UHGV virus genome: UHGV-0106598
DNA: 45,497 bases
Source of the DNA: a virus
Direction: 5' to 3' (one strand)
Part shown: positions 11,458 to 18,656 of the stretch, piece by piece
Numbering within the stretch: position 1 is the stretch's first letter
How the letters are laid out: each line of letters opens with the position of its first letter
Translations under genes and position numbers: made by a program
The notes under the pieces: generated by a model
Seen by the model: the letters and a program-made list of their open reading frames with translations, nothing else
Told to the model about the DNA's origin: nothing
Database searches by the model: none

Positions 11458-11667
11458 ATTGACTTAGAAAAAGCCCGGGGCTATAGTTTCCGCGCAGCCG
11501 CAAAATCGGTTGCCGGGATTGCAACCCCGGATATCTAAGTGACGCATAGCCGCGTTAGCGGTTTTTTTATGCGTAAAGTACAGCTACATCTAAATTATGG
11601 TGGGCTGGGCAGGGCCATCGTAAGATGGGCCGGTTTCACTTAGGCCGGTTGTTGCAACCTTGTCCAG

Positions 11668-11710
11668 CTCACCACCCAATGATTGCAACCTGACGGTGGT
11701 GAGTTTTATC
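11668..11710 (+). terminator. Terminator/attenuator-like hairpin (CTCACCACC ... GGTGGTGAG, about 18-nt loop, then TTTTAT) just upstream of the ORF6N-like gene
   Basis: Seen in sequence: perfect 9-bp inverted repeat followed by a T-run; the same intergenic region has repeated TTGCAACC motifs. Confidence 0.45.
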
Positions 11711-11729: not shown

Positions 11730-12524
11730 ATGACAACTCAAATTTCCGCACAAACTCTTTCCCCAATCTCTCATCAAAATACGCTTGTCATCACCACCGA
11801 ATTGCTTGCACAACTGTATGGGACTGAACCAGTCCGAATTCGTCAAAACTACTCTCGTAATGAAGGGCGGTTTGTTGAAGGGAGACATTATTTTTTGGTG
11901 GAAGGCGATGAACTACGGGAGTTGAAACGCAAAGTATCTCAAAGCTACTCTGTGAAAATTGCCAAAAATGTACGTACTATCATTCTCTGGACAGAACGCG
12001 GCGCAGCTCGCCATGCCAAAATGCTGGAAACAGAACAGGCCTGGGAAGTTTTCGAAAAGCTTGAAGATTGTTATTTTAGCCAGCGTCCAGAGAGGCGGAG
12101 TACAACTACCGATTACCGTACTCCCTTACGTGATGCCGTTAATATGCTGGTCGGTAAGAAAGGCATGATGTATCCCGATGCCTACACCATGATTCACCAA
12201 CGTTTCGCCGTCTCTCACATAGAACAACTGTCACAGACGCAAATGTTAGAGGCGATTGAATACATCCACTGCCTGCTACTCGATGAAAATCAGCCAACCA
12301 TTCCAGATTTTTCTTTTATCACCACTATCAAAAATGGAAAAGTGACCGGGATGCGCCATGTTGCCAAAGGCGAACATCTGATGACCTTTGACGCTTTCAA
12401 AGAGATCGCTGAGCGGGCAGGGTATCTGGTGATCCACAGCGACAATCTGCGAAGTATGACACTGGATAAATTGATGGTAATGGGGAAAAAGTCGGCTATA
12501 TCCGTTGCTAATTCAGCATTTTGA
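11730..12524 (+). CDS. ORF6N/KilA-N-like domain protein (possible antirepressor-type regulator)
   Basis: N-terminal LVITTELLAQLYGTEPVRIRQNYSRNEGRFVEGRHYF ... ILWTERGAARHAKMLETEQAWEVFEKL resembles the recalled ORF6N pattern; own leader with a hairpin. Confidence 0.45.
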   Translation: MTTQISAQTLSPISHQNTLVITTELLAQLYGTEPVRIRQNYSRNEGRFVEGRHYFLVEGDELRELKRKVSQSYSVKIAKNVRTIILWTERGAARHAKMLETEQAWEVFEKLEDCYFSQRPERRSTTTDYRTPLRDAVNMLVGKKGMMYPDAYTMIHQRFAVSHIEQLSQTQMLEAIEYIHCLLLDENQPTIPDFSFITTIKNGKVTGMRHVAKGEHLMTFDAFKEIAERAGYLVIHSDNLRSMTLDKLMVMGKKSAISVANSAF

Positions 12525-12903
12525 CAGGTTGTTTGGGGCGGAAATACTCTATTTGCGCTTAGGATACTTGTTAGCTACTTCCACTTTTGTCACAAAGCGG
12601 ACTATCTGGCTGAGCTGAGGGTCCGCAGTGAGTGAGGATCGAATATTTAAGCGTCGGTACTGATGACGGATTTGAGGTATTTAAAATATTACAGGAGCTA
12701 GTGTGGATGTGACAGACATAAAAGTGGATGCAGTCAGAAAAGATATATGTATAGCAGGCTTCTTCGAGGACTAGATCAATCAATAAGATTTAGATAAAAT
12801 TGCAGTGTTAAATAAAAAGACTAGTAGTATTTAAACTTTAAGTGCGTTAGTAAAGTCGTGCAATTATATAAAACTAACGTTTTCTGAATGTTTGGAGAGT
12901 AAA

Positions 12904-13599
12904 ATGTTAGAACCGCCAAAGAATTATAATGAAATGTTACCCATGCTCCATAAGGCAACTTTTATTACTACATTTATATTTTACCTATCATTGGTTATTT
13001 ATGGCTACATACCATTGGTTGGCATTAATGCCAAGTACATTCCACCAATCAAAGACTACGAAGAATTTATTAAGTGGATATTAACATTCGGCATATTACC
13101 AATTGCATTCTCAATTTTTTGGTCTGTGATTAGTGGGGCTTTAGATCTACATAATAACGTGGCAAAAATTCTTGGAATAAGAAAAGCATGGGATAATTAC
13201 TTGATTGTTAAACCATTGGCGCAAGTTGCAGGCATTACAAGAAAATTAACTAGTGATGAATCCTCCAAAGTAATGAACAAACTGTATTACCCAGAAGTTA
13301 ATGAGTTAAAAGATAAACATTATGTTGAGCTCTTCTGGAATAAGGTTTATTACTTTTGGGTTTTCTTTGAACATACTGTGATTGCATTTATTACTGTTTT
13401 AGTAATAAGTTTTGCTAAAATAACCCATTTACTCTCTGTAACCGGTTCTTTAAAAAATCTTTGGTTGTGGGTTATTTTTATTGTTGTCTTTAATTTTCTT
13501 ATTTTTATTGCATCCGTTAAACCCAGAACTGAAGGCCAAGTCAGACAAATACCTGATGATAAGATAAAGGAATTTTTTAATAATAACAGTATTTTTTAA
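12904..13599 (+). CDS. Integral membrane protein (about 4 predicted transmembrane helices), unknown function
   Basis: GGAGAG ribosome-binding site before the ATG at 12904 (track ORF starts at an upstream non-ATG codon); four long hydrophobic segments; AT-rich codon usage; stop adjacent to the next gene's ATG. Confidence 0.5.
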   Translation: MLEPPKNYNEMLPMLHKATFITTFIFYLSLVIYGYIPLVGINAKYIPPIKDYEEFIKWILTFGILPIAFSIFWSVISGALDLHNNVAKILGIRKAWDNYLIVKPLAQVAGITRKLTSDESSKVMNKLYYPEVNELKDKHYVELFWNKVYYFWVFFEHTVIAFITVLVISFAKITHLLSVTGSLKNLWLWVIFIVVFNFLIFIASVKPRTEGQVRQIPDDKIKEFFNNNSIF

Positions 13600-14265
13600 A
13601 TGAGGTTAGTTTTGAATTACAAAATAAATGGAATGACTATACGTTCAGAAAATGCAGCAAAACCGCATACTATGCCATCTAACTATCTCTGTAACCATAT
13701 TGAAAATTCTGTTAAAAATGGCATGGCCCTTGATTTCGGATGTGGAAAGCTTAGATATTCAGAACAATTAGTAAATAAATTTGAAGCTGTGACATTTTTA
13801 GATTCCAGAAAACAGTTAGAAAGAGTGCAAATTATCAGAGGCGTACAAACCACAATTCCAGAGTATGTGGCTAATAATTATAAAAATGCTAATGTTGTCC
13901 CTTTTGAAAGTATAGATAAAATAAAAGATAATTATGATTTCATACTTTGCGCAAACGTGCTTTCCGCAATTCCATGCAAATCAACAATTTACAAAATCAT
14001 CAATGAGATTGGGAGATTATTAAAAAATGATGGTGAAGCAATTATTGTTAATCAATACAAAAGCTCTTATTTCAAAAAGTATGAGACTGGAATTAAACAT
14101 TTGCATGGATATATATACCAAAACTCTCGCAATGCTTTCTATTATGGCTTATTGGATGAGAATATTGTAAGTAAAATTTGCTTAGATAACAATTTAGCAG
14201 TAATAAAGTCATGGAGCAAAGCTGGCAGTTCATATGTGGTTGTTGGTAAAAATAAACATAATTAG
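13600..14265 (+). CDS. Class I SAM-dependent methyltransferase-like protein (small-molecule/RNA/protein type, not a typical DNA methyltransferase)
   Basis: Motif I LDFGCGKL, acidic residue about 17 aa later (FLDS), motif DFILCANVLSAIP; no DPPY/NPPY-type DNA methyltransferase motif seen. Confidence 0.5.
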   Translation: MRLVLNYKINGMTIRSENAAKPHTMPSNYLCNHIENSVKNGMALDFGCGKLRYSEQLVNKFEAVTFLDSRKQLERVQIIRGVQTTIPEYVANNYKNANVVPFESIDKIKDNYDFILCANVLSAIPCKSTIYKIINEIGRLLKNDGEAIIVNQYKSSYFKKYETGIKHLHGYIYQNSRNAFYYGLLDENIVSKICLDNNLAVIKSWSKAGSSYVVVGKNKHN

Positions 14266-14592
14266 TAAATTTAAAAATAATATTAGAGGGTGCCATTTTC
14301 TTATTACTTATTAACTCGCTGGGGTAGGGGCAACACGCCCCACCTCATCAAGTTACTGCAGGATTATAGACTTTTGTCAAAACGTTGGAAAAATTCAGTA
14401 CAAACTTTTCCATGTTTTTCCTAATCATAGATAATGATGCTCACTTATGTTAACAACTTCTTGTACATAACGGTCTTCTTCAACAGGACAGCTATAAGTG
14501 AAGAAATAAAGTCGATAAACAATAAAGAGGCTCCAAATAAATATTATTCAATGAAGCCTGCTGTTTATTATTTGTTATTATTAAATCGCTAC

Positions 14593-15492
14593 TTATAATT
14601 CAACAATTTTTAGTATTATATCAATATTATTTAGCCTTGCAATCTCTGATGAATCGTTTGCAATTTTATCTTTTAAATTATCAATGTTAATCATATCTTC
14701 AGAGCTAATACAAACCATATCACCTTGGTTAACTTTTGATTTGTTCACTATGGCTTGAATAACAGACAGATCGTCCATTACACCTCTCAGGAATTTAACC
14801 ATGCTTTGATCCTTGAAATCAGATATCGATTTTGAACGTTGCTTACGTTGGATTGTTCCTTTTGTAATTATTTCGTTAATTTCTTTTAAACCGGCAAGCA
14901 TATCAGATATGCTTCCTTCGCAACTCATCCTGTGTTTAATAGCATTGCGATTAATAACATTGAGTATTATTTCGAGTGAATCTCTATCATCCCATGGCGA
15001 TAATAATGTATAATCCTGATGGCGATGAATGGCATCAAGCATATCAAGGATCATATTTTCATCTGCTTTATCGCAAAGTTCATTTACAAAATAGCTGGGG
15101 TCGATTACTTTACAATAACTTGGAACTGAGCATTTTGAGCTTTTACAAAACCCAAAAATATATAAAAAAGGGTATATGTCTTTTAGACTCTTTCCTGATT
15201 TATTTTCTTTTTCAAAGGCTGCGATTGTTTTTTTAATTTTTGCCGGGGTTGCTTTCGTTGTAACTTGAACTGCTATCATGTTTTTATTGTCAGCTAAATC
15301 AATGGCGGGAAAGTTAACTTTAATCTGATTCATGTTTTCCAGTCCCCCCATTTTCAGTGCGCGAAACATATAAATGGTCAATGACTCAATCATTCTTTCC
15401 ATGTCATGAAAGCCAGTCTGTTTGCGTTGTTCGATATAAAGCTGAAGTAGCGCAATATCTTTCTGTAAGTTACTAATAACTGGGGCAATCAT
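14593..15492 (-). CDS. Hypothetical protein with an Rx4H (HEPN-like) motif; candidate abortive-infection-type RNase
   Basis: 299-aa ORF with AAGGA ribosome-binding site; RNAIKH at residues 182-187; N-terminal NFPAIDLADNKNMIAVQVTT region resembles what I recall of SMEK-type N-terminal domains (tentative). Confidence 0.45.
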   Translation of the reverse strand: MIAPVISNLQKDIALLQLYIEQRKQTGFHDMERMIESLTIYMFRALKMGGLENMNQIKVNFPAIDLADNKNMIAVQVTTKATPAKIKKTIAAFEKENKSGKSLKDIYPFLYIFGFCKSSKCSVPSYCKVIDPSYFVNELCDKADENMILDMLDAIHRHQDYTLLSPWDDRDSLEIILNVINRNAIKHRMSCEGSISDMLAGLKEINEIITKGTIQRKQRSKSISDFKDQSMVKFLRGVMDDLSVIQAIVNKSKVNQGDMVCISSEDMINIDNLKDKIANDSSEIARLNNIDIILKIVEL

Positions 15493-16025
15493 AGCTAATA
15501 ATCCTTTTCAATTAAGTAGGGGATGTGTTTGAGCTTCTTTATTTGACTGTTAGTTTAATTTCTTGTTTTCATATTAACAAGCTCTACAATTTTATCAAGA
15601 TTTCTCAAAAACTAATCCTCCGTGTAAATCCACTAACTATGCTGAATTTATTCCGCTGTAAAACATGTCCGCTCATGGCTGTGAGTTCAACGGGTCGATG
15701 CAACGCCATCCACTCAGTAAAATTGTGTAATTCCAGTGAGCAGGCGAATCTTCAGTATGCTCTAGTTTCTTACTCACACCTGCTTATGCTTTAACTAGGT
15801 ACAATGTAGATAAACTCTCATGTTGATTTATCGCCATGATCACATTTCCGGAAGAAAAATTTTGTTTGTAACCTTGCTAGATGAGACAGTATAGATATCA
15901 TTACATATGAAACAGTACATTAGGGAACACTGAAGGCCGTAACTTTAAAAAATATAATTAATTGTACATAATTTTATAACAATCAAGATGGTGGCAATTA
16001 TATAAGTAATAATAAGGGGTGATTA

Positions 16026-17378
16026 ATGATTAAATTCACAGAAAAGGAAATACAAAATTACATATGGGAAAATAGGAACAATTTTCCCGAACTGCTTATT
16101 GAACCTGCAGGTCTTGAAGTACTTGAATTCAACGAAGATCTCTCTGATGTAACAGCACAACTGCTAATAAAAAACAGAATAAATAGTAAACTATCCAATC
16201 TTCACTCTAAGCTTTATGGACTGGAATTTATCGGCTGCGAAGTTCCTTTAGAACAAAATTCAAACTCAACAATTAGAGCCGATTTTTTGGCTATATTCTG
16301 TGATGATACTGGGCTTGCTGTCATAGAGCTTAAAAAAAGTGAACAAACTGAAAGGCAAGCATTCACTGAATTGTTAGCATATTCAAACCATATGACAACA
16401 TTATTTCCATCCATGACGAAAAATGACAGTGTGTATATTTTAATATCACCAATGGAAACCAGAATAGCACGTGATGCTGTCATCCAAAGTTTAATATTTG
16501 ACAATAGGGATATCATTGCTTTAATTCCAACATTCTCTGATCCTCTTGATATTACCTCTCTTAAACTTGAATTATGGATTCCAGACCAAACAGAGTTAGC
16601 GACTTTCTCAAATATTGCATTTAGAGAAGATAATTTTAGTGTCTGTAAATTATCCTGGGAGTATGACGCAGAGCGATGGGATGCAGCTAGAGGAGAAGAA
16701 CTTTTACATTCATTTGTTAGTCAATTTGATAACATTTCCTGCCTTGCAGCTCAGTATATGGAAGAATCTGGAGTTCATGGTTTTACTTATTGCTCTCAGT
16801 TATGGCCTGAATTATCTCAGGCATTACCTTTTACGAATTCATTAGTACTAGTTGGCATGAATCCTTATGCTGTCGGGAGTGTCCAGCATTTATCCACAGA
16901 AGACGACAACTATGATGATATTCCAGACCCAAATTCTTACACTCCTCACATATCTGAATTAATTGGTAAACTAGGTGAAGGAGAACTATATGAGGCTAAT
17001 ATTGATGTCCTAAGTGGTTTACATTGTACATGGATCTCTCAATTATATCGTATAGGTAAGCAGGTAATTGAACTCACCACTAGAAATACAGATGGGAAAT
17101 ACGTCCACGTTGAATATGGCTTTATGAATTGGGAAATCTATCAAAGGTCTCTACTTGAGGATGTTTTCTGTAATAACTTCGCTATTAGGTCTACAGGTTT
17201 AATACGACATCTCTATACTGACATTCTTAAATTAGATTATGATTTTTGTAAGAATAACGGATTGGAAAACCACCCTCTTCATGGAGACATGCCATACTTA
17301 GGCGTCAATTTCCTTAAATCCCACCAGCACTTTAGAAAATTTATTTTGCGAATGTTCTATGCCGAAATAGATGCGTAG
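16026..17378 (+). CDS. Hypothetical protein with N-terminal PD-(D/E)xK-like nuclease motif and about 340-aa C-terminal region of unknown function
   Basis: 450-aa ORF with AAGGGGTGA ribosome-binding site; E72 ... D86 ... E101-L-K103 in IRADFLAIFCDDTGLAVIELKK fits the restriction-endonuclease-like fold motif. Confidence 0.4.
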   Translation: MIKFTEKEIQNYIWENRNNFPELLIEPAGLEVLEFNEDLSDVTAQLLIKNRINSKLSNLHSKLYGLEFIGCEVPLEQNSNSTIRADFLAIFCDDTGLAVIELKKSEQTERQAFTELLAYSNHMTTLFPSMTKNDSVYILISPMETRIARDAVIQSLIFDNRDIIALIPTFSDPLDITSLKLELWIPDQTELATFSNIAFREDNFSVCKLSWEYDAERWDAARGEELLHSFVSQFDNISCLAAQYMEESGVHGFTYCSQLWPELSQALPFTNSLVLVGMNPYAVGSVQHLSTEDDNYDDIPDPNSYTPHISELIGKLGEGELYEANIDVLSGLHCTWISQLYRIGKQVIELTTRNTDGKYVHVEYGFMNWEIYQRSLLEDVFCNNFAIRSTGLIRHLYTDILKLDYDFCKNNGLENHPLHGDMPYLGVNFLKSHQHFRKFILRMFYAEIDA

Positions 17379-18107
17379 TGAGATTTTTTAATTTATCTCT
17401 GCTGGAGAAAATTCATGGGTGAGGAAAGAGATAGATAATATTGAAAATAAAATCTTCAAAAGATGTGGAAATAAAAACATGATCTAAATTTTTTTGGCAT
17501 TCATTTCATATGAAACAGTCCTTCTAAAAAACTATACAGGCATGGATGATATTTTTTATGATTTTTTAGTTGTAATTTATCTTTACTATATAATATATGG
17601 GGGGATTGTCGCCAGCTATTCACCGACTATCAAATATCAATAACTCCTGGCTGTTCTGTAAGGTATAGACATACAAATCGGCCTGAAGATTACGGATAGT
17701 TTCTTAAGGTCCGTTCCTGGCACAAAGTGGACTGTCAAATTAAATTCGGCTCCACGCCATAGATGTGTCAGCTCATATCTTATCTAATACACACAATAAT
17801 TCTCTCATTCTTAGAGAATTATTCTTTTTAGGCTAGATGTTGACGTTAGAACAAAAGAATAGATATTTTTGATATTTATTACATTGGAGCTAAAGTACCG
17901 CCCATGTACAACTGGAGCGTTTGCTGATGGTATCGCATTATCTTGCAGAGGACGCACGCAGGTTAAATAAAACAAGCATATGTGCCTGGTTTTTGTAATA
18001 TTGGGTATAACATATGCTTTATAGGGGCGAGCTCAATGACCAACCGAGAAAGAATCTCCTGCCAGATACAGTTATTTTCACCCTCTCCATAACATAAGGG
18101 AGTTTTT

Positions 18108-18656
18108 ATGTCGGAAGTGAGTATCGTAGAAGACGACCCACGGCCAGTAGTCGCCGAATTGGCAGATCTGTTACAAGCACGACCATTTCATCAGAATCAA
18201 TATGATAACTTATGTCGCTTTATGATTTATTTTTCCTTGGCTGAATCAAAATTAACATCAATGGCTGCTGGCCTTGGTGGAACTGACGCACTGGCACAGG
18301 AACTAGTTGTGCATAACGGTATGGACAGTCAGGCCATAGATGATTGCTATCGTTATTTTATACGACGCTATCGAGACAGCCCTGATAGCGATTACCGCTT
18401 CAATAAACTAGCCCCACCTGAGTATGTTAAGAATGCAATCAGAGGACGCTTTGTTACGCTACTTCAGATACAGTCTCCAACAATTGAAGATAAAATCAGC
18501 TTTGTGTTCAAAGTGATTTTTAGGTTACGGCATAATCTTTTCCATGGAGAAAAATGGTCTTACAACCTTGAAGACCAGGAAGCTAATTTTTCACATGCTA
18601 ACAATGTACTACTATCCTGTTTGACTCTTACTCGCGGGAATATGTGGCACCCTTGA
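18108..18656 (+). CDS. Hypothetical protein with Rx4H motif (possible HEPN-like)
   Basis: 182-aa ORF with strong AAGGGAG ribosome-binding site; RHNLFH at residues 141-146. Confidence 0.4.
   Translation: MSEVSIVEDDPRPVVAELADLLQARPFHQNQYDNLCRFMIYFSLAESKLTSMAAGLGGTDALAQELVVHNGMDSQAIDDCYRYFIRRYRDSPDSDYRFNKLAPPEYVKNAIRGRFVTLLQIQSPTIEDKISFVFKVIFRLRHNLFHGEKWSYNLEDQEANFSHANNVLLSCLTLTRGNMWHP

Follow-up and report, generated by a model that had tools for sequence, protein, structure and literature searches.

A two-gene prophage cargo module of the YmfE–YmfD (Kunado) type that probably shields its lysogen from other phages

INTRODUCTION

What is the role of a small methyltransferase whose start codon directly follows the stop codon of a membrane protein gene, inside a prophage? 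The locus that raises this question lies in a viral genome of 45,497 nt (UHGV-0106598; the whole stretch that was analysed is called the window), which is a lambdoid prophage of Escherichia coli with 100% identity to strain EC28. A sequence-only reading of the window had described the two gene products as working partners, considered their pairing unusual and suggested that they cooperate with nearby nuclease-like and HEPN-like genes. The features that define the pair and its surroundings are as follows.

About 12550–18000, no strand: low-GC cargo island, from the composition profile and the annotated context in E. coli EC28
12745–12903, plus strand: conserved upstream region, likely a promoter and 5′ UTR, from cross-locus alignment, with the Shine-Dalgarno sequence GGAGAG at 12894–12899
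12904–13599, plus strand: ymfE-like (Kunado family) gene, 231 aa, inner-membrane protein with four predicted transmembrane helices, from homology, hydropathy and an AF2 model
13597–13602, plus strand: TAA/ATG junction, where the ymfE stop is directly followed by the ymfD start, read from the sequence
13600–14265, plus strand: ymfD-like gene, a 221-aa class I SAM-dependent methyltransferase that is not of the DNA-methyltransferase type

RESULTS AND DISCUSSION

The pair is a diverged copy of ymfE–ymfD from the K-12 element e14

Both open reading frames lie where the sequence-only reading had called them, and the TAA of the first (13597–13599) is followed without a gap by the ATG of the second at 13600. 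In direct comparisons, the membrane protein is 60% identical to K-12 YmfE over 232 aa (E = 1e-105) and the methyltransferase is 67% identical to K-12 YmfD (E = 1e-110); one match in the homologue search carried the name ymfD from its source. The e14 genes ymfE (b1138, Kunado) and ymfD (b1137) agree with the window pair in gene order, in the stop/ATG junction and in full-length homology, and both pairs are AT-rich prophage cargo adjoining another defence-type gene. By homology, the window pair is a diverged copy of the e14 pair. The settings differ: the e14 pair is located beside int and att, with the divergent gene of the Lit protease as its neighbour, whereas the window pair is located in the nin region of a lambdoid prophage, next to a convergent SMEK nuclease-like gene. 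The Lit and SMEK proteins have no similarity to each other.

The pairing is not, as had been supposed, an unrecognised oddity, as YmfE has already been reported to act against T5-like phages. According to a preprint of September 2026 (10.64898/2026.09.05.749240), deleting hns from K-12 uncovers a protection against T5-like phages that maps to ymfE, deleting ymfE from the Δhns strain restores their infection, and a cloned copy of ymfE, expressed from its native promoter, is protective. The effect extends to phages with different receptors, and adsorption is not blocked; the authors renamed YmfE ‘Kunado’ and proposed a block of DNA injection, which is inferred only from the normal adsorption (10.64898/2026.09.05.749240). 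The lit/ymfE locus is bound, compacted and silenced by H-NS; in a screen of e14 deletions only lit and ymfE scored; and ymfD is not mentioned in the preprint (10.64898/2026.09.05.749240). For the window pair, the anti-T5 phenotype and the H-NS silencing would be carried over by homology from this 60%-identical K-12 homologue, and the window allele may have another phage range than K-12 YmfE, or none. The cargo island in which the pair lies has a GC content of 31–35%, compared with ~50% in the prophage backbone (composition profile), which is consistent with an H-NS target. The island is preceded by replication and antirepressor-like genes and followed by the Q antiterminator region.

We found the pair in 434 of 5,426 complete E. 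coli genomes, in three allelic forms: the window allele (5 genomes), an allele ~87% identical to it (146) and the K-12 e14 allele (283), which has 68% nucleotide identity to the window allele and is represented among the listed examples mainly by laboratory strains. Both genes of the pair are under purifying selection when compared with the common E. coli allele (dN/dS = 0.11 for ymfE and 0.28 for ymfD). Synonymous divergence across 12904–15492 of the window, compared with one locus of the common allele (L002), is 0.66 for ymfE, 0.33 for ymfD and 0.32 for the SMEK gene; the twofold higher dS of ymfE hints at a mosaic history within the cassette.

Separately, we observed that the ymfD start codon is changed from ATG to ACG in the common allele of 146 genomes (L002, 10854–10868; L036, 6709–6800). 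RefSeq annotates ymfD there either as 217 aa, from a TTG located 12 nt downstream, or in a 197-aa form. The 197-aa form is probably a mis-annotation, because it would lose the invariant residues N18, A20 and K21.

YmfE is predicted to be a four-helix inner-membrane protein of its own family

The description of the first gene product as a four-helix membrane protein agrees with our predictions. Hydropathy analysis yields four hydrophobic segments at about residues 19–41, 57–78, 146–170 and 185–205, and the AF2 model is all-alpha (pLDDT 90.8, pTM 0.85). Segments 2 and 3 are separated by a conserved 65-residue loop containing 10 lysines and arginines. According to the positive-inside rule, this loop, the N-terminus and the C-terminus are predicted to face the cytoplasm.

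Conservation across the family is concentrated in a limited set of residues. There are 24 invariant positions, all of which are present in the window protein, itself the reference of the alignment. H83, H139 and E156 are invariant, N84, D137 and H157 are nearly so, and all six adjoin in sequence the starts or ends of transmembrane helices 2 and 3. R93, which is invariant, and K88, which is nearly so, fall early in the loop, and the C-terminal tail carries a DQxxQI motif. No usable family match was obtained in Pfam, PADLOC, NCBIfam or PHROG, and Pfam scans of 36 family members returned scattered sub-threshold matches only. A search for fold relatives found none, including among viral protein models and known toxin or holin folds.

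YmfD appears to be an active methyltransferase on a conserved non-DNA substrate

YmfD is assigned to class I by its Rossmann-type fold, its glycine-rich motif I and the acidic residue after strand 2. Its SAM-binding motifs are intact and its sequence contains no (D/N/S)PP(Y/F/W) tetrapeptide, which bears out the earlier assignment to the class I methyltransferases without a DNA-methyltransferase motif. With regard to the PCQ and ENV motifs, YmfD has an invariant P125–C126 and no ENV. Among the DNA-methylase families of Pfam, NCBIfam and PADLOC there was no match beyond a weak and generic one to mad2 (PADLOC, 7e-4), which spans the generic methyltransferase core. More broadly, the system models of PADLOC-DB 2.0.0 gave no match to YmfE and none that was convincing to YmfD.

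The best family matches of YmfD are to TehB (Pfam, 25 bits; NCBIfam, 2.6e-7) and UbiG (PDB profile, E = 0.003). Fold and sequence searches for its subfamily return a flat list made up of unrelated methyltransferases that act on small molecules or tRNA, and nothing in it points to a substrate. Some 40 positions of YmfD are invariant; the SAM-binding motifs account for part of these, and many lie elsewhere in the protein. Because so many residues are held constant, the substrate would be conserved as well, and YmfE or a host membrane-proximal molecule would fit better than a fast-evolving phage protein. The best-supported reading of the sequence is that YmfD is a catalytically intact, active-looking and obligately co-encoded methyltransferase acting on a conserved non-DNA substrate. 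Published studies have found that a ymfD knock-out grows normally in K-12, that ymfD is not solely responsible for m6A in mRNA, and that a point mutation in ymfD, followed during experimental evolution, was neutral.

The two genes are strictly and anciently coupled

We next consider how consistently the two genes occur together. A ymfD-type gene is located directly 3′ of the ymfE-type gene, on the same strand, in 64 of the 64 loci that have DNA downstream of ymfE. Paired loci occur in E. coli, Pectobacterium, Yersinia, Providencia, Vibrio cholerae, Pseudomonas, Halomonas, Marinomonas, Marinobacter and Halieaceae, and at the far end of this range the identities fall to 34–39% for YmfE and 41–48% for YmfD. 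Pairwise identities of the two proteins are correlated (r = 0.96; 21 loci, 210 locus pairs), a pattern to be expected of genes that are inherited together as a unit. Universal co-occurrence strongly supports the view, already taken in the sequence-only reading, that the membrane protein and the methyltransferase work together.

The family extends well beyond these genera. A HMMER scan with a YmfE profile retrieved 276 representative clusters, including a large distant clade of ~260 (proteins P0234–P0365) whose members are 230–250 aa long, have the same layout and carry no annotation; their shared motifs are NYxxML, LH(N/D), FYxYxSS, IDxH and WxWFW..E. For this distant clade the pairing is read from the single member whose contig reached downstream, a metagenomic protein (P0368, locus L066) with 23% identity to YmfE (hhalign, E = 1.2e-16). 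The gene that overlaps it by 11 nt and extends 3′ of it matches the YmfD profile (hhalign, E = 1e-23) and contains LDYGCGKLRYS. The presence of a YmfD-type gene at this position indicates that the association predates the divergence of the whole family. A search for the same pair in other genomes, which the sequence-only reading had put forward as a check, thus recovered it from E. coli to distant metagenomic relatives. Such strict and ancient coupling, together with the breadth of the family, is absent from the literature that we searched.

The genomic contexts of the pair are diverse. Within lambdoid prophages it occupies the nin region, pointing either with or against the backbone, and in one setting it comes immediately after the O/P replication genes. 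P2/186-like prophages carry it at one end or the other, and in e14 it lies beside int and lit. In Pectobacterium it lies in an integrative and conjugative element (ICE) adjoining McrBC, in Vibrio cholerae in an array of small gene cassettes flanked by toxin–antitoxin genes, in Pseudomonas next to Hachiman, and in a Halieaceae genome near Mrr, HNH and GIY-YIG nucleases. In Halomonas it adjoins a gene cluster with DUF3584, which we take to be Wadjet JetC-like. Only three plasmid records match the pair, and 50,697 records of isolated phages contain no nucleotide or protein match to it. The module is seen in integrated elements and not in sequenced virions. The pair is a self-contained mobile cassette, carried as prophage and island cargo, and not a well-known housekeeping operon, which had been named as a finding that would refute the sequence-only reading.

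The layout of the cassette is compact. About 170–200 bp before the ymfE ATG align among the window, E. coli C7 and the Pectobacterium ICE, while sequence farther 5′ diverges; the left edge of the block conserved with the SMEK gene falls at 12745. GGAGAG is positioned four bases 5′ of the ATG at 12904, and RefSeq uses the same start in the identical EC28 locus. The stop/ATG junction recurs in K-12 and in six further loci (L031, L033, L039, L041, L042 and L058). Spacing between the two genes is 0 nt (TAAATG) in most Enterobacterales and 2–14 nt, with GGA-type Shine-Dalgarno sequences, in other taxa; with the metagenomic pair included, it ranges from an 11-nt overlap to a gap of ~14 nt. Sigma-70-like matches are no commoner in the cassette than in shuffled sequence and the promoter is putative. 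No terminator-like sites were found in the cassette, its repeats are unremarkable, and an Rfam scan gave no match inside it.

A proposed membrane effector with a co-encoded methyltransferase

The reading that we favour, with moderate confidence, is that the pair is a two-gene prophage cargo module of the YmfE–YmfD (Kunado) type, with YmfE as the effector and YmfD as a methyltransferase, which most likely shields the lysogen against other phages. YmfE would insert into the inner membrane with its four helices, leaving both termini and the 65-residue loop in the cytoplasm. By homology with K-12 YmfE, it would stop T5-like infection after adsorption, probably at DNA entry. YmfD would be made from the same transcript, by tight and probably coupled translation, and would methylate something other than DNA on, or close to, the side of YmfE that faces the cytoplasm; YmfE itself and some molecule near the membrane are the most plausible candidates. 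Such methylation would tune, mature or extend the activity of YmfE. The alternatives considered below, in which the neighbouring SMEK gene is a third component, the membrane protein is a toxin held in check, or the pair is metabolic cargo, are ranked below this two-gene module.

Known superinfection-exclusion proteins provide a useful comparison. T4 Imm, P22 SieA and HK97 gp15 are small, prophage-encoded inner-membrane proteins that are thought to block DNA entry after adsorption, which is also the mechanism that the preprint proposes for YmfE. YmfE differs from them in that it resembled no viral protein model in sequence or fold, and we know of no obligate methyltransferase partner for any of the three.

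How much of the phenotype depends on YmfD? It is apparently dispensable for the T5 phenotype, because the e14 screen scored only lit and ymfE and because cloned ymfE sufficed. Since ymfE alone appears sufficient against T5-like phages, YmfD may have a regulatory part, may limit toxicity or may be directed at other phages. We also entertain, tentatively, a stronger form of the partnership, in which YmfE and YmfD would form an obligate membrane-bound complex and SAM-dependent methylation of something other than DNA would itself be part of blocking phage entry or early infection. Such a complex might methylate YmfE itself; other candidate targets are a lipid or quinone and a component of the phage as it reaches the inner membrane. 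If this were true, it would constitute an anti-phage mechanism by methylation of a protein or small molecule at the membrane, and Kunado, described as a single protein, would be a two-component system across the Gammaproteobacteria.

A different logic, which we regard as unlikely, is that of abortive infection or a toxin–antitoxin pair: YmfE would be an infection-triggered, membrane-damaging effector, and YmfD would restrain or reset it by methylation, in the manner of an antitoxin or regulator. The tight operon coupling, the downstream position of the enzyme gene and the universal pairing would all fit, as would the silencing of the locus by H-NS, which many toxic immunity genes share. The conserved polar residues by the ends of the transmembrane helices (H83, D137, H139, E156 and H157) might form a gated site, and an injection block deduced from normal adsorption leaves room for such an effector. 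However, cloned ymfE was tolerated and protective under its native promoter, apparently without ymfD, and YmfE resembles no known toxin or holin fold. The normal growth of the K-12 ymfD knock-out also argues against a restrained toxin, although the operon is silenced there.

The favoured two-gene module changes the question to be asked of this family. YmfE has only just been proposed as a phage-defence protein, acting as a single gene, and a ymfD-type gene follows it in every locus that we examined. What a non-DNA methyltransferase does for a phage-blocking membrane protein is now directly testable, and finding out could show that superinfection exclusion includes a control or effector step based on methylation. 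For such work, our data define the conserved residues, the predicted topology and the boundaries of the cassette, and they set the core pair apart from its passengers SMEK and Lit.

Neighbouring genes and the limits of the module

Three further genes of the region bear on whether the module includes more than the pair.

14593–15492, minus strand: SMEK-domain nuclease-like gene, 299 aa, convergent to the pair (Pfam SMEK_N, 8.6e-23; NCBIfam SMEK_N, 3.6e-31)
16026–17378, plus strand: 450-aa open reading frame, weakly nuclease-like (HSDR_N, 0.0027, and REase_II, 0.0022, PD-(D/E)xK-type; phrog_30092, 4.8e-11)
18108–18656, plus strand: HEPN-like open reading frame, 182 aa (RHNLFH, an Rx4H motif of the HEPN type; phrog_27260, 1.8e-9)

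The sequence-only reading had proposed that the pair acts together with its nuclease-like and HEPN-like neighbours, and the SMEK gene gives this proposal its best case. A block from 12745 to 15673, comprising ymfE, ymfD and the SMEK gene, is conserved as a unit at 83.6% identity. The SMEK gene occurs in 152 E. coli genomes, compared with 151 that carry non-e14 ymfED alleles. Strain C7 has the block in reverse orientation with respect to the phage backbone, and the Pectobacterium ICE also contains it, which indicates that it moves as one cassette. In short-Argonaute systems SMEK is considered a nuclease effector, and one could envisage a three-gene system here, with YmfD, for example, either licensing the SMEK effector or guarding the host against it. 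We judge this improbable. The pair occurs without SMEK in K-12 e14, in Yersinia and Providencia, in several enterobacterial prophages with 83–89% alleles and in all distant taxa (examples are L029, L033, L040, L041, L058 and L062), while a SMEK homologue of 74–80% identity stands alone in E. coli EC05. Furthermore, SMEK and the pair do not form one operon because the genes are convergent, and YmfD lacks the DNA-methyltransferase motifs. The pair occurring without SMEK, and SMEK without the pair, suggest that SMEK is a frequent passenger of the cassette and not a component of the core pair, so that the proposed cooperation is retained as a linkage within one enterobacterial subclade and no further.

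We also considered whether the SMEK gene belongs to a short prokaryotic Argonaute system of the SMEK–APAZ type, with which it has an N-terminal SMEK nuclease-like domain in common. The SMEK_N match covers only the N-terminal ~110 aa (residues 5–120), and the C-terminal 190 residues match nothing. Profile searches of this protein and of the other island proteins scanned returned no APAZ or Argonaute family, and this assignment was rejected.

The other two neighbours show no linkage to the pair, and the part of the proposal that concerned them did not hold. The 450-aa open reading frame accompanies only the window allele of the cassette (L001, L038 and L061). The HEPN-like open reading frame, which has no Pfam family, lies outside the conserved cassette block.

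Finally, the membrane protein TehA and the class I SAM methyltransferase TehB, which are encoded together as tehAB, form a pair of the same general kind. It is very improbable that our pair is likewise metabolic or detoxification cargo without a link to phages, its enzyme methylating a small toxic compound, quinone or lipid that the membrane protein transports or presents: although TehB and UbiG are the best family matches of YmfD, its 30.3 bits compare with a TehB equivalog cut-off of 218, Pfam scans relate YmfE neither to TehA/SLAC1 nor to any transporter family, the contexts are mobile, defence-associated prophage cargo sites and defence islands, and the YmfE homologue has a reported anti-phage phenotype.

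Other elements in and around the cargo island

Two additional observations concern the flanks of the region. On the plus strand at 11494–11679, Rfam matches at gathering level identify isrK (11494–11568, 76 bits) and a C4 antisense RNA (11593–11679, 78 bits), directly 5′ of an ORF6N antirepressor-like gene (11730–12524); the arrangement looks like an antisense-controlled antirepressor module of the P1/P7 type. Toward the other end of the island, at ~17709–17890, there is an unannotated non-coding stretch of ~180 nt that is ~88% conserved in about 420 E. coli genomes. In the one other genome that we inspected, it sits among unrelated cargo genes; its role may be that of a junction or recombination element where prophage cargo cassettes meet.
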